Source: Nitrosopumilus sp. | Lineage (GTDB): Archaea; Thermoproteota; Nitrososphaeria; Nitrososphaerales; Nitrosopumilaceae | Assembly: GCA_965223425.1 (NCBI GenBank) | Contig: OZ245003.1 | Coordinates: 1,760,001 to 1,824,000 of the forward strand | Direction of reading: 5' to 3' | Length of the DNA: 64,000 nucleotides | Shown: piece by piece, positions 8,689 to 23,780 of the stretch | Layout: each line of letters starts with the position of its first letter | Numbering within the stretch: position 1 is the first letter of the stretch | Notes under the pieces: model-generated | Databases searched by the model: none | What the model was told of the DNA's origin: nothing | What the model saw: only the letters and a program-made list of their open reading frames with translations | Program-made: the position numbers and the translations under genes

Positions 8689-8774
8689 GGTTCTGTCAAG
8701 TTATCGTGTGTTTATGGATCTGAAAATTATATGATTCAGTATTTCATGCTAGCACACGACAACGTTACAGAACC
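8689..8774. mobile_element. 86-bp MITE with IS6-like termini, copy 1
   Basis: GGTTCTGTCAAGTTATCGTGTG ... CACACGACAACGTTACAGAACC (22-bp TIR, 3 mismatches); identical to 9205-9290. Confidence 0.85.
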
Positions 8775-9204: not shown

Positions 9205-9290
9205 GGTTCTGTCAAGTTATCGTGTGTTTATGGATCTGAAAATTATATGATTCAGTATTTCATGCTAGCACACGACAACGTTACAGAACC
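9205..9290. mobile_element. 86-bp MITE with IS6-like termini, copy 2 (direct orientation)
   Basis: Identical to 8689-8774; no flanking TSD. Confidence 0.85.
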
Positions 9291-20145: not shown

Positions 20146-21072
20146 ATGTCAATTAAAAAAATTGTTTCGTTTTTGCCCAGTGCAACTGAATTACTATATG
20201 AATTTGGGGTACAGGACAAACTTTATGGGGTAACACATGAGTGCAAATACCCGCTAGATGCAACATCAAAACCCCAAGTCATTAGTTCTGTGATGGATTC
20301 AGAGAAAATGACTAGTAAGGAAATCGATACGATGACTTGTCAATTATTAAATGATGGAAAAGATATTTTTGTTTTAAATGAAAAAAATCTAAAAGACGCA
20401 GAGCCGGACTTGATTATTTCACAAGAGACTTGTAAAGTATGTGCAGCATACACCAATCAAGTAAGCAAGGCAATAAAGATTCTCCAAAGAAAACCAGTAC
20501 TGCATTCTATGAATCCACATAACTTACAAGAAATCATAAACTCAGTTATAGAATTAGGGAAGATTTTAGAAAAAGAATCAAGAGCAAAAGAAATCACTGA
20601 TGGACTGGAGGAAAGGATTCAGAATATCAAGAAAGTCCAAAACGTACGGAAACCAAAAGTTCTTGCAATAGAATGGATTGAGCCATTCTTTACTGCAGGA
20701 CACTGGATTCCTGAAATGGTGCAAATTGCGGGAGGGACTAACTTGACAAGTAAAATCGGCGAGCATTCAAGGCGGTTAGACATTCAAGAAATTATCGAAT
20801 CAGAACCTGACATAATTATTATGATGCCATGTGGTTTTGATACAAAACGAACAATTTTAGAATATAACAAATCACTAAAAGAAAATACAAAATGGAATTC
20901 TCTAAAAGCTGTAAAAAATAATCAGGTTTTTGCAGTGGATGCAAATTCATTTTTCAGCAAACCTAGCATTAGAACCATAGGGGGATTGGAGATACTAGCC
21001 AAAATCATCAATCCAGAGAAATTCAGAGATATTGAGGTCTCCAGACTGTCTTATTCCAATATTGCAGTCTAG
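20146..21072 (+). CDS. BtuF-like cobalamin/Fe-siderophore-type substrate-binding protein
   Basis: KIVSFLPSATE, GVTHECKYP, QETCKVCA, EWIEP..AGHW. Confidence 0.85.
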   Translation: MSIKKIVSFLPSATELLYEFGVQDKLYGVTHECKYPLDATSKPQVISSVMDSEKMTSKEIDTMTCQLLNDGKDIFVLNEKNLKDAEPDLIISQETCKVCAAYTNQVSKAIKILQRKPVLHSMNPHNLQEIINSVIELGKILEKESRAKEITDGLEERIQNIKKVQNVRKPKVLAIEWIEPFFTAGHWIPEMVQIAGGTNLTSKIGEHSRRLDIQEIIESEPDIIIMMPCGFDTKRTILEYNKSLKENTKWNSLKAVKNNQVFAVDANSFFSKPSIRTIGGLEILAKIINPEKFRDIEVSRLSYSNIAV

Positions 21073-21135
21073 GCACAAAAAACGACTGTCATAAGAGATA
21101 ACACACAACTGGCTATATCCATTTTTGGAAATAAC

Positions 21136-22425
21136 GGTTCTGTCAAGTTATGGGCACCTGAAAATTTTCAATTCACGGATAGGCATATACATAAATGCTC
21201 CAAAATCATATAATATTTGTTGAAGGCAACAAAGTCAATAGCACAAAAATATACGCCAAACTCTGACCTAATGGACATGATGGCCACATTCACAAAGATG
21301 GTCAATCATTGCATCAAGATAGGGTTAAAAGAAGACACTCACAATATGAAGAGGCTGTCCATGTTATGTTATCACGAATTACGTAACTATGACATTTTAT
21401 CGTCATACAAACTAAATGCAATATCAAGGGTTGCTGGCATATTATCAAACAGAAAACAGTCAATAAAACGTGGCATCATGGTTAGATACCCAAAGATAAC
21501 AAAGTCGTTTATCACTAATTGTTATGGTATAAAACACAATGGTGCACTACTCACAATCCCATACAAGAGTAGAAATCCAATCAACGTCTTGTTAAACCCA
21601 CATACCCAAAAAATCCTGTCTGATCCCGCCTTGACAGTACGCTCGTTTTCATTGACTGCCTTCAACATCAGTCTTTGTGTTTCAAAAAAAGTACAAGAGA
21701 TAGAGTGCACCAAGAAAGTTGGAATAGACAGAAACCTAAGAAATGTGACGTGTGGGAACGAGGAACAAGTAACATTTTACAAGACAAACAAGCTGTTATC
21801 CATAAAGGAGAACACAGTACACGCCAGGGCAGGCTTCCGCAGAAATGATCGCAGAAAAAAAGGCCGATTCTGGAAGATAAAACAGCGAAGAATGGCCAAT
21901 AGAACAAAACAATACATACACAGAATCTCAAAGGATATAGTGGACAACGCAGTCAAAAACAAGACTGTAATCGTCATGGAAAACCTGAAAGGAATAAGAA
22001 AATTGTACCGAAAAGGAAACAGTCAAGGTAACAAGTATAGGCGCAGATTAAACGGGTGGCAATTCTACGAGCTGCAACGCCAAATAGAATACAAAGCCCA
22101 ATGGGTCGGGCTCCCACCAGTCGAATATGTAGACCCAAGAAACACGAGCAAGATGTGTCCAAGATGCGGAAAGAAACTCCAAGAGGACATGCAACACAGT
22201 CGTAAAATGTCGTGTAATAATTGCGGATTGTTTATGGACAGGGATATTATCGCTGCCATGAACATATCACGCAAACTGTCCCCTAGGTTTAGGGATAGTA
22301 GAGATGACATAGGTAAAGCGCAGTCCGGTGTTTTTGAACCGGCGATGATGGAACCCTGCATACCGGTAATCCAGATAGTCGATATGTCAAAGTCGAGTGA
22401 TAGGTGCCTATAACTTGACAGAACC
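21136..22425 (+). mobile_element. 1290-bp TIR-bounded element carrying only tnpB
   Basis: 24-bp TIR GGTTCTGTCAAGTTAT(G/A)GGCACCT (21136-21159 and 22402-22425); 8-bp TSD GAAATAAC (21128-21135 and 22426-22433). Confidence 0.92.
21217..22413 (+). CDS. tnpB: TnpB RNA-guided endonuclease
   Basis: RuvC I GIDRN, RuvC II VMENL, RuvC III DRDIIAAMNI; Zn finger CPRC...CNNC; WQFYELQRQIEYKA. Confidence 0.93.
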   Translation: MLKATKSIAQKYTPNSDLMDMMATFTKMVNHCIKIGLKEDTHNMKRLSMLCYHELRNYDILSSYKLNAISRVAGILSNRKQSIKRGIMVRYPKITKSFITNCYGIKHNGALLTIPYKSRNPINVLLNPHTQKILSDPALTVRSFSLTAFNISLCVSKKVQEIECTKKVGIDRNLRNVTCGNEEQVTFYKTNKLLSIKENTVHARAGFRRNDRRKKGRFWKIKQRRMANRTKQYIHRISKDIVDNAVKNKTVIVMENLKGIRKLYRKGNSQGNKYRRRLNGWQFYELQRQIEYKAQWVGLPPVEYVDPRNTSKMCPRCGKKLQEDMQHSRKMSCNNCGLFMDRDIIAAMNISRKLSPRFRDSRDDIGKAQSGVFEPAMMEPCIPVIQIVDMSKSSDRCL

Positions 22426-22568
22426 GAAATAACTAGCACGACGGCGCTAGTTAGTTAGTTATTAGTACAAGACACGACATGCCAATGGACTCAGAAACGT
22501 ATGATTTGCTACAAATGACAGTGATGTTTTAATGAGATTAAAGAAAAGTTCAACAAATTGAAAATTAG

Positions 22569-23780
22569 TTATTTTTTTGAAGCGCTAATTAATGAAACAA
22601 CATCTCTGTCTCTTAGTTGATAGTCAACTGGCAGTCTCAAATTGTATCTCAAATCTTTTCCATAAAGAAGGCCTTTAGTTAAATCAGAGTGAATTTCTTT
22701 TGCAAGATCATTGATTGTTGCTCCGTTTTTTAACAGGATCAGGTCAGGAAGTATCCGTCCCTTTTTGTCAGCAAGGTTTTTCTCGTCTGCAACAGGGTAT
22801 ATCGAATTCATTTTAAGCAGTTTGAAAACTGCAACGTTAATTGCAAATTGGACGCCTGTCCTCATGTATTCACCCATAATTCCTTTTTTGATAAAATTTA
22901 ATGCGTTAACTTGTTTCTCGTTTAATTCATCAGACTTGATTATTTCAAATTGTTCAGAACCAGGCGAATATTTTATGAGTCCTTTTTGTTCTGCACGTCT
23001 AAGACTAAATTCACTATCACCGCTAACCGGAATCACTATAGAGTCATTATAACGCTCTCTTAATTTAGAAAAATTTTTGTCGGCACCTTCAACATCAATT
23101 TTGTTAGCTACAATCAAAGTAGGTTTTGAAATTTGTCTCAGATATGATGCAAATTTCTTGCTATCAACAATATCAAAATCATCAAAATCTTTTTCCTCAA
23201 GTCCAGTTGCCAACAATGTATCTTTAACATGAGTTTTGTTAACACCAATACCACGGTAAAGATCAGTGATTGCATCCAAAATATCAGAGCCGGTTCTGAT
23301 CAGTTTGGATACTTTGTCTCTGTTTCCTTCTAAAATTTTATGATACCACATGATCAGTTCTTCTTCTATATCTGCAAAATCAGAGATAGGATCACCGGTT
23401 CCGACTTCGGTGATTTTTCCTGTTGAACCAATTCCGCCGGATGCATCAACAACGTGAAGTAACGCATCAGATTGTGCTGCAATAGATAGAAATTGATTTC
23501 CCAACCCTTTACCTTTCCATGCATCTTTGATGAGTCCTGGCAAGTCAATTAGTTCAATTGGAATGTATCTCCACCCTTCAACACATTTTGAATTATTTGG
23601 GTTATCTTGTACTTTGAATTCCGGGTGAACGCACAGGGATACAGCATGTGCCACGCCAGATACTGGCTTTTTAGTGGTGAACGGATAAGATGAAATTTCT
23701 TCGGAGGATAACGTGGCAGAGTTGAAGAAAGTTGTTTTTCCAGTATTGGTTTTACCAATTAGACCAAGCTTGATTGGCAT
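22569..23780 (-). CDS. ychF: YchF/OBG-family GTPase with TGS domain
   Basis: GKTNTGKTT, YPFTT, DLPGL, GKGLGNQFL, NKID, C-terminal TGS domain. Confidence 0.88.
   Translation of the reverse strand: MPIKLGLIGKTNTGKTTFFNSATLSSEEISSYPFTTKKPVSGVAHAVSLCVHPEFKVQDNPNNSKCVEGWRYIPIELIDLPGLIKDAWKGKGLGNQFLSIAAQSDALLHVVDASGGIGSTGKITEVGTGDPISDFADIEEELIMWYHKILEGNRDKVSKLIRTGSDILDAITDLYRGIGVNKTHVKDTLLATGLEEKDFDDFDIVDSKKFASYLRQISKPTLIVANKIDVEGADKNFSKLRERYNDSIVIPVSGDSEFSLRRAEQKGLIKYSPGSEQFEIIKSDELNEKQVNALNFIKKGIMGEYMRTGVQFAINVAVFKLLKMNSIYPVADEKNLADKKGRILPDLILLKNGATINDLAKEIHSDLTKGLLYGKDLRYNLRLPVDYQLRDRDVVSLISASKK

Follow-up and report, generated by a model that had tools for sequence, protein, structure and literature searches.

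IS6-like ends and a one-sided TTR motif around tnpB in Nitrosopumilus and other archaea

The genome of Nitrosopumilus sp. carries, in the 64,000-nucleotide stretch of contig OZ245003.1 that we analysed (positions 1,760,001 to 1,824,000, hereafter the window), a 1,290-bp unit that comparative anatomy shows to be a non-autonomous IS6-like transposon, with tnpB and a predicted overlapping guide RNA as its sole cargo and with movement presumably supplied in trans. The explanation that we favour as a whole, with a probability of roughly 0.7, combines trans mobilisation of such an IS6-like tnpB element with a guide that would start with the target-site duplication, and with cutting of the empty allele by the encoded nuclease.

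The tnpB unit, its family and its candidate transposase partners

The unit spans positions 21136-22425 and contains an intact tnpB as its only gene. Its inverted ends are 24 nt each and identical at 23 of the 24 positions (Table 1). Direct reading and a repeat search agree on this layout, as the initial annotation had described it: tnpB alone in a 1290-bp unit with 24-bp terminal inverted repeats, one mismatch between them, and a perfect 8-bp duplication. The stop codon (TAA, 22411-22413) lies within the right end, again as annotated, and 57 nt of the unit precede the tnpB ORF. The unit shares with IS6-like elements an 8-bp duplication and ends in the form of inverted repeats, which start with GG and have G as their seventh base (GGTTCTG...).

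Table 1. Coordinates of the tnpB element and its predicted features within the window
Feature	Position	Strand	Remarks
Candidate TAM TTG (consensus TTR)	21125-21127	+	Directly 5' of the left duplication; from the position table of 42 elements
Left 8-bp target-site duplication copy, GAAATAAC	21128-21135	.	Single copy at the empty orthologous site in G008
Left terminal inverted repeat	21136-21159	+	IS6-like (GGTTCTGT...); sequence GGTTCTGTCAAGTTATGGGCACCT
tnpB, 398 aa	21217-22413	+	Only long ORF; start codon uncertain (TTG at 21217)
Raised synonymous-site conservation, likely scaffold extent overlapping the tnpB 3' end	22125-22425	+	5' limit approximate
Predicted scaffold helix 1	22276-22298	+	22276-22282 pairs with 22292-22298; 6/7 pairs changed on both sides
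Predicted scaffold helix 2, long-range	22305-22389	+	22305-22311 pairs with 22383-22389; 6/7 pairs changed on both sides
Predicted scaffold helix 3	22392-22419	+	22392-22397 pairs with 22414-22419; 5/6 pairs changed on both sides
Right terminal inverted repeat	22402-22425	-	Reverse complement GGTTCTGTCAAGTTATAGGCACCT; holds the tnpB stop
Right 8-bp target-site duplication copy, GAAATAAC	22426-22433	.	Direct reading
Predicted guide template (duplication and right flank)	22426-22445	+	From the motif position and helix 3 ending 6 nt earlier

Judged from its sequence, the ORF is a TnpB by family models above their cut-offs, a D-E-D triad and a C4 zinc finger. It scores 126.7 bits against NCBIfam NF040570 guided_TnpB (cut-off 100) and 77 bits against Pfam PF07282 (cut-off 26.3), matches Pfam Cas12f1-like_TNB with an E value of 1.3e-21, and matches PDB chains of TnpB and Cas12f. 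The three acidic RuvC residues and the zinc finger that had been noted initially were located as D171/E255/D343 and, in the pattern CxxC...CxxC, as C314/C317/C333/C336. We infer that the protein is an active nuclease.

To place the unit in its family, 89 tnpB loci from about 35 genomes were examined: the 14 tnpB-family loci of this genome, 33 from a related Nitrosopumilus MAG (OZ240211.1), which carries more than 30 family loci, and 42 from other genomes. Repeat pairs were called by a finder anchored on GGTTCTG/CAGAACC, and a clean element was defined as an anchored repeat pair with an 8-bp duplication containing at most one mismatch. An anchored GGTTCTG-type repeat pair lies directly around tnpB at 73 of the 89 loci, and 42 of the 89 also have the 8-bp duplication (at most one mismatch). 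These are 42 independent elements, each with its own duplication, and provide the further copies with the same ends and different duplications for which a search had been proposed. Repeat-plus-duplication anatomy was found at 0 of 15 bacterial TnpB control loci. Among the distant loci, 14 of 42 have no anchored repeat pair, the ends being visibly degraded in some (L211, L242); GGTTCTG-type ends and 8-bp duplications are kept down to ~37% protein identity, in other archaeal classes. At the genome level, the 24-mer end pattern has five matches, against none for a reversed-pattern control. The orthologous site in a relative (G008) is empty and has one GAAATAAC only, which supplies the empty site that was to be sought in relatives. 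Together, the 24-mer control, the recurrence in 42 elements, the bacterial controls and the single GAAATAAC in G008 place the anatomy of the window unit beyond chance. In the DNA runs X2, X4 and X5, no element-skipping contig was present among those listed and only the occupied allele was seen; empty alleles may still exist.

The initial annotation had proposed that tnpB was captured by an IS6-type non-autonomous element. The association itself stands, but a recent capture in this genome does not: the association of tnpB with IS6-like ends, as read from the sequences compared, is old and clade-wide, and spans several archaeal classes at ~37-47% protein identity.

As an alternative, tnpB could be a passenger whose copies are either in decay or domesticated, for instance as RNA-guided repressors, with no role as nucleases. 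Three copies in this genome are broken in a way that favours this reading, one by a frameshift (C1:2433495-2434822) and two others by IS630-type insertions that split them. However, 11 of the 14 loci are uninterrupted, seven of eight aligned distant members retain both the D-E-D triad and the zinc finger (in L052, A replaces E), and the many copies with duplications that differ point to continuing mobility. We consider the passenger explanation very improbable.

IS6-like transposase elements whose ends are near-identical to those of the tnpB elements occur in the same genomes. Their transposases score 42-53 bits against Pfam PF13610 (DDE_Tnp_IS240; cut-off 27) and match the NCBIfam IS6 model over its full length with 103-111 bits, below the cut-off of 125; they are 340-378 aa long and have N-terminal zinc-binding regions. 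In the genome studied here, a degraded IS6-like transposase gene (G000:C1:793017) adjoins an end that is identical to the left end of the window unit at 28 of 30 positions, and to a sister copy of the window element at 29 of 30. One intact transposase copy with similar ends is present at C1:917303-918340, with a single end recognisable. Relatives carry complete IS6-like transposase elements with matching ends and 8-bp duplications. The complete MAG element L091 (1,970 bp, duplication CTATTGTG) has its first 19 end bases in common with the tnpB elements L033 and L040, and the ends of L129 and L127 match the main tnpB family of this genome (GGTTCTGTGAAGTTATCG...). The IS6 transposase with matching ends that had been postulated has its candidates in the DDE_Tnp_IS240 elements of relatives and in the degraded gene here. 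No tnpB was found within 2 kb of any of the 69 IS6-transposase loci retrieved (0/69), from which it follows that tnpB would ride on a non-autonomous element moved in trans.

A predicted guide-RNA scaffold and a one-sided motif

Across the last ~300 nt of tnpB, third-codon-position conservation rises from ~0.78 to ~0.91 in 42 copies. Three helices are predicted in this region (Table 1). Together they have 92.8% of cells paired, compared with 63% in shuffles and ~36% when slid, and 118 double-change cells, compared with 42.8 in shuffles; in helix 2, 97.9% of cells are paired. Helix 3 takes its 3' strand from within the right inverted repeat and stops 6 nt short of the end of the element, leaving AGAACC single-stranded. 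The covariation supports a putative scaffold for a guide RNA, with a last helix formed in part from right-end bases, in line with the course of the omegaRNA through the right repeat that had been considered initially. For helix 3, the covariation could also arise at the level of DNA, if a subterminal site of the transposase changes together with the repeat. The loop of helix 1 (AGGTTT) has its complement in the final bases of the right end, and this candidate pseudoknot has 98% of cells paired with only one double change, a result equalled by 60 of 500 shuffles; the data are compatible with a pseudoknot, with too little variation to test it.

A search of Rfam with positions 20900-22700 at E values up to 1 returned one sub-threshold snoRNA match in the flank, and by this search the scaffold belongs to no described RNA family. 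A promoter and terminator scan found promoter-like matches to be no commoner than in shuffles, and a hairpin at 22430-22453 in the flank; neither result bears on the signals of the element itself. In the RNA-library run X1 (small share 0.08, Logan contigs), likeness of at least 93% occurs only within 21913-22424, in 9 of 30 bins. The contigs show 0-10 differences from the window and would therefore come mostly from relatives; they carry no strand, end or expression information, the library may contain DNA, and the absent cover on the 5' part and the flanks is no evidence either way.

These observations bear on the possibility that an IS605/IS607-type tnpB element inserted once into a miniature inverted-repeat element, with repeats unrelated to tnpB. 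Such nesting has in its favour the prior expectation for TnpB elements, and nothing further. It is already contradicted by the repeat pairs immediately around tnpB at 73 of the 89 family loci, by the tight fit of the ORF, which starts 57 nt into the unit and ends within the right repeat, and by the scaffold, which pairs and co-varies with repeat bases. Its probability is close to nil.

A T-purine dinucleotide directly precedes the left duplication, on the tnpB-upstream side, in 41 of the 42 clean elements, and TTR does so in 31. On the opposite side, the counts are 7/42 and 3/42, respectively (binomial P ~1e-34), and in the genome background TR and TTR have frequencies of 13.1% and 4.2%. In a position table of the 42 elements, T is found at -11 in 31, T at -10 in 41 and a purine at -9 in 41, and the neighbouring positions have no consensus. 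The T-rich TAM suggested for the window copy has its counterpart in a TTR directly before the left duplication in nearly all copies. An independent scan of all the sequences assembled for the comparison yielded 57 elements, 42 with and 15 without tnpB, and the motif was present upstream of tnpB in 41 of the 42, compared with 6 of the 30 sides of tnpB-less elements (Fisher P 1.6e-12). In this small control set of elements with the same kind of ends, T-purine occurs on one side or the other in 6 of 15. Among the IS6-transposase elements with a duplication (n=9), TTR is found on 3 of 18 sides. The one-sided motif suggests that the nuclease influences which insertions persist, and fits a guide that starts at the duplicated bases.

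Alternatively, the insertion machinery itself could pick the site, if an IS6-like transposase or a host feature (promoter, oligo-T terminator) prefers TTR-N8 and TnpB is irrelevant. The many AT-rich left flanks in the family, some of them T-runs such as CCATTTTTG at the window copy, agree with this idea, and so does the T-purine in 6 of the 15 tnpB-less elements. A preference of that kind is harder to reconcile with a motif at one fixed position among neighbours without consensus, and with its tie to the tnpB-upstream side, for which a symmetric repeat pair gives no reason. It also sits poorly with the low counts on the sides of the tnpB-less and the transposase elements. In addition, the window copy sits between two convergent genes, and hence where no promoter lies. 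Site choice without TnpB appears unlikely to us.

Proposed mechanism and self-protection

In the mechanism that we favour, the tnpB unit would be moved in trans by IS6-like DDE transposases whose genes lie elsewhere in the genome. The guide RNA would be transcribed through the 3' end of tnpB, with a last helix made partly of right-repeat bases, and after the six unpaired bases AGAACC it would continue into the flank, so that the guide would open with the 8-bp duplication and then take in the right flank. The covariation, together with where the motif lies, supports at the level of prediction a guide that begins with the duplication; its length of ~16-20 nt is an assumption taken from other TnpBs. 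An empty allele, made up of TTR, one copy of the duplication and the right flank, would offer a full protospacer behind TTR. At the occupied left junction, the guide would match over 8 nt only, and the right junction would present ACC rather than TTR before the match; on these two grounds, we predict that the nuclease would spare the element that encodes it. For the elements of this genome, the exact guide match is preceded by ACC in 12 of 12 tested, the window 16-mer included. A 15/16 match to the window guide at C1:2020704, preceded by GTA, was judged to be due to chance, since one-mismatch matches occur for 4 of the 12 guides.

TnpB would then cut empty alleles, and recombination would copy the element back. 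Candidate empty alleles are the sister chromosome, incoming DNA, and a site rejoined across the two 8-bp copies after loss of the element. Only insertions that land behind TTR in the right orientation would gain protection or drive, which would explain why nearly all survivors have the motif while the transposase itself has no such preference. We infer the cutting of the empty allele, be it for homing or for retention, from the layout of the sequences. Bacterial IS26-type elements are described as forming replicative cointegrates and never excising (PMC6807381), and a 2026 review holds that, since excision by a DDE transposase makes a break in any case, a nuclease contributes little (PMC13565253); both points speak against the step at which TnpB would meet an empty allele.

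TnpB could also act during insertion. Together with the RNA or an end of the element, it would recognise TTR and position the IS6-like transposase, causing oriented insertion in a primitive CAST-like manner. Directed insertion would likewise give a one-sided motif at a fixed distance that is restricted to tnpB-carrying elements, and would make a strong filter on random insertions unnecessary. Against such targeting, the guide of the donor matches the old flank and not the new target, so that TnpB could contribute only by binding the motif, with no R-loop formed; moreover, the 1.29-kb unit encodes no adaptor such as the TnsC or TniQ of CAST, and the parts of the TnpB literature consulted offer no precedent. 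We regard assisted targeting, too, as doubtful.

We speculate that the one-sided TTR is the first natural footprint of TnpB shaping the insertions of a duplication-making DDE transposon that is itself indifferent to the target. In its bold form, TnpB would steer the transposase to TTR in one orientation, as a guide-independent forerunner of CRISPR-associated transposition. In its mild form, only motif-adjacent insertions would be kept or driven, with the duplication-containing guide letting TnpB destroy the empty allele. We offer this generalisation tentatively, and consider it unlikely to hold.

Relation to known systems and implications

What is understood about TnpB comes from IS605 and IS607 elements, whose excision leaves no scar and whose insertion takes place at a short, fixed motif. 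The window TnpB belongs to the same protein family as those of the tnpB-only IS200/IS605 elements (IS1341 group) and ISDra2. As in these systems, the guide RNA would overlap the gene at its 3' end, and here it is expected to extend to the right end of the transposon and on into the flank; also shared with the IS1341 group and ISDra2 are a motif at the left flank and a guide from the right flank. IS200/IS605 and IS607 elements are described as having no terminal inverted repeats and no duplication (PMC13565253), whereas the window element possesses both, with repeats of 24 nt and a duplication of 8 bp, as do its relatives (42 elements), which rules out membership in IS200/IS605 (including IS1341) or IS607. 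The window unit has no room for a TnpA gene of its own. Furthermore, IS200/IS605 elements directly adjoin their motif, which is identical with the target site of TnpA. Here the 8-bp duplication stands between motif and element, and would itself belong to the guide.

DDE-linked TnpBs are already in print. Altae-Tran et al. (2023, PNAS; PMC10691335) described the DDE-transposase-associated TnpB branches DDE-1 to DDE-6, in which, as here, TnpB lies inside elements with inverted terminal repeats and the 3' end of tnpB is near the transposon end. Solo tnpB genes with ends like those of transposase-bearing elements are reported in the same paper, and movement in trans was already suggested there. 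Its main text names IS630 and contains the word 'IS6' zero times; a 2026 review lists ISL2, IS630 and IS1031 as TnpB-linked DDE families (PMC13565253). The six branches were found by gene neighbourhood, by which the present clade, with tnpB at 0 of 69 transposase loci, would be classed as solo. A motif footprint beside the duplication is not described in the parts of PMC10691335 consulted, and its supplement may hold this clade.

Fanzor1 proteins are similar in being TnpB-type nucleases inside TIR/DDE transposons with inverted repeats that make duplications, and in having an RNA that runs through the right end. For the solved Fanzors, the 5' copy of the duplication is assigned to the motif and the 3' copy to the RNA scaffold (PMC13565253). 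Here, in contrast, the 8 duplicated base pairs vary between elements, the motif stands outside them, and they are expected to make up the first 8 nt of the guide.

The elements resemble IS6/IS26 and the archaeal 'IS6' entries of ISfinder in their ends starting with GGTTCTG, their 8-bp duplication and the match of the partner transposases to DDE_Tnp_IS240; the bacterial end consensus of IS6/IS26 is GGTTCTGTTGCAAA (PMC6807381). They differ from IS6/IS26 in that the window element encodes no transposase, and in the size, the N-terminal zinc-binding regions and the sub-threshold NCBIfam IS6 scores of the partner transposases. Harmer and Hall hold that archaeal members should be kept out of the IS6 family, and according to PMC6807381 there are no experiments on archaeal members that would speak to copy-in cointegrate formation.

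Both NCBIfam Cas12f2 and PDB Cas12f chains match the C-terminal half of the window TnpB, which links it to Cas12f (type V-F). Cas12f enzymes use PAMs of the TTTR or NTTR type, resembling the TTR found here. Unlike Cas12f systems, the element has no CRISPR array and no adaptation genes, and its guide would be fixed by the insertion site.

A literature search, in which subscription journals were thinly covered, retrieved no paper linking TnpB with IS6-type ends, nor one on this motif footprint. The study of prokaryotic systems beyond IS605 and IS607 has been urged in a 2026 review (PMC13565253). For the question of whether and how a nuclease helps ordinary DDE transposons, the clade is a compact natural case, in which the transposase that would move the 1.3-kb unit in trans shows no evident preference for particular sites, yet the unit sits almost exclusively behind TTR, and in a single orientation. 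It makes homing or retention directly testable against steered insertion by TnpB, and from it we also predict an archaeal nuclease of small size that would work with a short motif, TTR, and a defined scaffold RNA. More generally, gene-neighbourhood screens miss the transposase partners of 'solo' tnpB genes, and transposon ends together with duplications reveal these partners.

The window element and its tnpB family

The 1,290-bp unit at 21136-22425 has the anatomy given in the initial annotation. Direct reading and a repeat search confirm the inverted repeats, the duplication of GAAATAAC, the single tnpB and its stop codon (TAA) within the right repeat. The interpretation of the unit as an IS6-type element with tnpB cargo is supported by the comparisons below, from which we infer its function. 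By sequence, the ORF is a TnpB: it matches Pfam Cas12f1-like_TNB (E 1.3e-21), NCBIfam guided_TnpB (126.7 bits, cut-off 100) and, at the sequence level, solved TnpB and Cas12f chains (E 3e-13 to 4e-9), and it keeps RuvC residues D171, E255 and D343 as well as four zinc-finger cysteines. The neighbours are ordinary archaeal genes, and the strands and ends of the flanking two place the unit between convergent genes. A 24-nt hairpin, TAACTAGCACGACGGCGCTAGTTA (22430-22453), begins 4 nt inside the right duplication and shares bases with the predicted guide template; it resembles a terminator region belonging to the convergent GTPase gene.

Features of the window element, its flanks and transposase genes of the source genome (window coordinates unless prefixed C1, the first contig; flank positions relative to the left repeat)
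Feature	Location	Strand	Remarks
Periplasmic-binding-protein gene	ends 21072	+	neighbour
Left target-site duplication	21128-21135		GAAATAAC; abuts left repeat externally
Left inverted repeat	21136-21159		24 nt; 23/24 positions match right repeat
tnpB ORF	21217-22413	+	398 aa; sole long ORF
Predicted helix 1	22276-82 with 22292-98		covariation alignment
Predicted helix 2	22305-11 with 22383-89		covariation alignment
Predicted helix 3	22392-97 with 22414-19		3' strand within right repeat
Right inverted repeat	22402-22425		24 nt
Right target-site duplication	22426-22433		GAAATAAC; abuts right repeat externally
Obg-like GTPase gene	ends 22569	-	neighbour
Nre gene			neighbour
Flank position	-11		T in 31/42
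Flank position	-10		T in 41/42
Flank position	-9		purine in 41/42 (G 24, A 17)
Other flank positions	eight duplicated positions, -18 to -12, right flank		no base similarly favoured
Degraded transposase gene	C1:793069-793965	-	298-aa frame; start 29 nt inside end at C1:793017
Intact transposase gene	C1:917303-918340		345 aa; single recognisable end GGTTCTGTCAAGTTGTAGTG

A search of related strains for the empty site, suggested in the initial annotation, was successful. In the related genome G008 the flanks of the window copy are only ~21 nt apart and read ...CCACTTCTG GAAATAAC ATTGTATGG..., with one GAAATAAC and not two, which indicates that the duplication was created by insertion. Two other relatives (G018 and G016) read ...TTTTGGAAATTAGA... 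at the same place. Right of the duplication the sequence has diverged between species, and the G008 site is the relative's version, not the exact pre-insertion allele of the source strain.

In the source genome (G000; 2.64 Mb, 2 contigs), where the window spans C1:1760001-1824000, a protein search gave 22 matches. They comprise 14 family loci with 83-92% identity, 11 of them uninterrupted; the remaining matches are fragments and, on contig 2, three distant TnpBs (G000:C2:36379-47200; 27-31% identity). This 123-kb contig has a G+C content of 47%, vs 41%. A sister copy (C1:2433495-2434822) shares its repeat with the window element but is flanked by a different duplication, TTATAGAT. The 1,291-bp units of a larger subfamily have GGTTCTGTGAAGTTATCGGGAGTT at their ends, and their duplications include GATACTAG, CAATACAG and CTACAGGA. 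Two inverted elements (G000:C1:1325308-1326598 and 1451399-1452689) have exchanged halves of their duplications, TAGAAACT and TTATGTTA, which indicates a ~126-kb inversion via recombination between these copies. Two others (G000:C1:594234-596770 and 2292571-2294969) are broken by an insertion with a 339-369-aa ORF, whose 369-aa form, present in many places in the source genome, belongs to the IS630-type transposases (Pfam DDE_3, 3e-24, and HTH domains).

The metagenome-assembled genome OZ240211.1 (MAG; Nitrosopumilus sp. by its title) holds more than 30 copies of the family, and relatives with 37-72% identity occur in records titled Nitrosotenuis, Nitrosotalea, Nitrososphaera, Bathyarchaeota/Bathyarchaeia, Methanomethylicota, Thermoproteota and Sysuiplasma. 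Among 1.84 billion cluster representatives, 111 matched at E <=1e-30 and 7,460 at E <=0.001; judged by these searches, the family is a modest TnpB subfamily. A repeat finder anchored on GGTTCTG/CAGAACC was applied to 89 loci (14 own, 33 MAG, 42 from other genomes). It detected a repeat pair around tnpB in 73, and a pair with an 8-bp duplication (at most one mismatch) in 42 (8 own, 22 MAG, 12 other); none of 15 bacterial TnpB control loci passed the same test. Further copies with their own 8-bp duplications, which the initial annotation had wished to see, are represented by 42 clean elements. That an IS605-type tnpB element is nested inside a miniature element is contradicted, as the repeat anatomy around tnpB holds family-wide.

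IS6-like transposases with matching ends

Pfam DDE_Tnp_IS240 is found at 8 places in the source genome. Next to the degraded gene, the first 30 bases of the end at C1:793017 match the left end of the window element at 28 positions and that of the sister copy at 29. A complete 1,970-bp element in the MAG (L091/L104) encodes a 378-aa transposase and has perfect 24-nt repeats, GGTTCTGTGTAATCTTCGTGATAT, and the duplication CTATTGTG; its first 19 end bases are common to two tnpB elements of the same MAG (L033 and L040). With this transposase as query 69 loci were retrieved; a repeat pair was detected at 18 of them, 9 of which have an 8-bp duplication as well, and at none of the 69 does tnpB lie within 2 kb of the IS6-like transposase. 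The ends of L129 and L127 (GGTTCTGTGAAGTTATCG...) match the main tnpB subfamily of the source genome. These two loci, L091/L104 and the end at C1:793017 provide candidates for the IS6 transposase with matching ends anticipated in the initial annotation, and movement of the element in trans by an IS6-like transposase is well supported by sequence comparison.

The partner transposases score above the cut-off of Pfam PF13610, and align over the full length of the NCBIfam IS6 model with 103-111 bits, below its cut-off of 125. Passages of Harmer and Hall (PMC6807381) give GGTTCTGTTGCAAA and 8 bp as hallmarks of bacterial IS6/IS26 and describe archaeal members as only distant relatives, for which no experimental data were found there. 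Because of this distant kinship and the sub-cut-off score, we name the partner ‘IS6-like’.

Several other repeats were observed. The 17-nt word AGTACATTTCGCTTAGC (and its complement) occurs on both sides of the degraded gene (G000:C1:792900-794483) and beside the tnpB element at 1451399, and may belong to another repeat family. In the window, identical 86-bp miniature elements with IS6-like ends (GGTTCTGTCAAGTTATCGTGTG... / ...CAACGTTACAGAACC) lie in direct orientation at 8689-8774 and 9205-9290. The ~430 bp between them hold a small ORF, and no matching 8-bp duplication flanks either copy. Single IS6-like ends (GGTTCTGT...GTGATATRG...) are located beside DNA-methyltransferase-like and other cargo-like ORFs at G000:C1:1830804, 1655669, 1690092, 1625327 and 647905; no partner end was found within ~1.5 kb, and these single ends may be relics, or belong to larger units that carry cargo. 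At G000:C1:2107253-2113913, 31 head-to-tail copies have a 222-bp period, every unit starting with GGTTCTGCTCTTTTGC.

A one-sided flanking motif and the predicted guide RNA

With the 42 clean elements oriented by tnpB, the T-rich motif suggested in the initial annotation is present before the left (tnpB-upstream) duplication, as TTR (T-T-purine) in 31 and as T-purine in 41, with L056 as the sole exception. On the opposite side, in the other orientation, the counts are 3/42 and 7/42. Against genome-wide background frequencies of 4.2% (TTR) and 13.1% (T-purine), binomial P is ~1e-34. Among the 12 elements outside the source genome and the MAG, 9 have TTR and 11 T-purine. Another 19 elements have good repeats whose duplications have been exchanged; 13 of them retain the left T-purine. 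In a 344-bp remnant that still includes the tnpB 3' end (C1:1199933-1200276), TTG is present on the equivalent side.

Scanning all sequence in the study independently gave 57 distinct elements that combine a repeat pair with a duplication. In the 42 with tnpB homology, T-purine is on the tnpB-upstream side in 41 and on the other side in 7, compared with 6/30 sides in the 15 without (Fisher P 1.6e-12 by sides; 4.9e-06 for ‘either side’, 6/15). The motif could reflect host promoters picked by the insertion machinery, but it is position-exact, one-sided and lacking around tnpB-less elements, and the window copy sits between convergent genes. Since the control comprises only 15 elements, we retain this explanation as an unlikely one.

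The motif lies exactly 5' of the left duplication, the position required if the guide starts at the first base after the right repeat, and not as expected were the duplication part of the scaffold. In Fanzors the duplication is reported as part of the scaffold in passages of a 2026 review (PMC13565253), whereas here it is predicted to lie inside the guide. These data indirectly support a guide composed of duplication plus right flank, and TTR as the putative transposon-adjacent motif (TAM). The predicted 16-nt guide was traced in the source genome for 12 own elements, and in every case its exact match stands behind ACC, with which the repeat ends. A 15/16 match to the guide predicted for the window element at G000:C1:2020704, preceded by GTA and inside unrelated sequence, was judged to be chance.

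Third-codon-position conservation rises from ~0.78 over most of the gene to ~0.91 in the last 300 nt (42 aligned copies). Three helices were predicted by aligning the final 220 nt of 20 diverse elements, and in 17 of their 20 pairs one or more sequences have both partners changed. Paired cells amount to 92.8%, compared with 63.2% in shuffled alignments (0/500 reach it) and 31-39% with the partner slid; double-change cells number 118 vs 42.8 in shuffles. Repeat variants between subfamilies are matched by changes in the inner strand of helix 3, which six bases, AGAACC, separate from the duplication. The scaffold proposed to run into the right repeat is consistent with this fold, and covariation indirectly supports an RNA that reads through the repeat, although that of helix 3 could instead reflect a DNA-level subterminal site. 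The helix 1 loop, AGGTTY, is complementary to AGAACC, and one lineage has AGAGCC with AGGCTT. A pseudoknot between this loop and the last repeat bases stays a candidate because the columns hardly vary. Rfam gave no match at the scaffold.

Proposed cycle and relation to known systems

Sequence comparison shows a non-autonomous element with IS6-like ends and 8-bp duplications, carrying tnpB and a putative structured RNA as cargo, with matching transposases elsewhere. We propose that TnpB would cut alleles reading TTR, one duplication copy and the right flank, and that recombination with an occupied copy would then restore or spread the element. Occupied junctions would be safe, the left matching over only 8 nt and the right being preceded by ACC. 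After element loss, joining across the two 8-bp copies would, by our own reasoning, rebuild the exact guide target. Against this homing model, IS26-type elements do not excise according to passages of PMC6807381, DDE excision already leaves a break according to those of the review (PMC13565253), and the empty allele was not seen among the sequencing-run contigs examined.

Because no preference of the partner transposase for TTR is evident in the small control set, a filter is the best reading of the near-universal motif: insertions landing behind TTR in the right orientation would persist or spread. TnpB steering the transposase to TTR sites would be expected to leave the same footprint; we regard this as improbable.

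That TnpB can ride on DDE elements with inverted repeats is already known in principle. Altae-Tran et al. (2023; PMC10691335) describe, in the parts considered here, six DDE-associated TnpB branches, all with inverted terminal repeats, and a tnpB 3' end usually no more than 250 bp from the edge of the transposon; the ends of some solo tnpB resemble those of transposase-bearing elements, implying movement in trans. Inverted repeats are common to both systems, with an IS6-like partner here. The main text of that paper names IS630 and does not contain ‘IS6’ as a whole word, and passages of the review (PMC13565253) name ISL2, IS630 and IS1031. Our literature search uncovered no publication in which TnpB is connected to IS6-type ends or in which a motif footprint next to a duplication is described. 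The IS6-like partner and the strictly non-autonomous state appear to be new, as do the predicted geometry with the duplication inside the guide and the one-sided TTR footprint.
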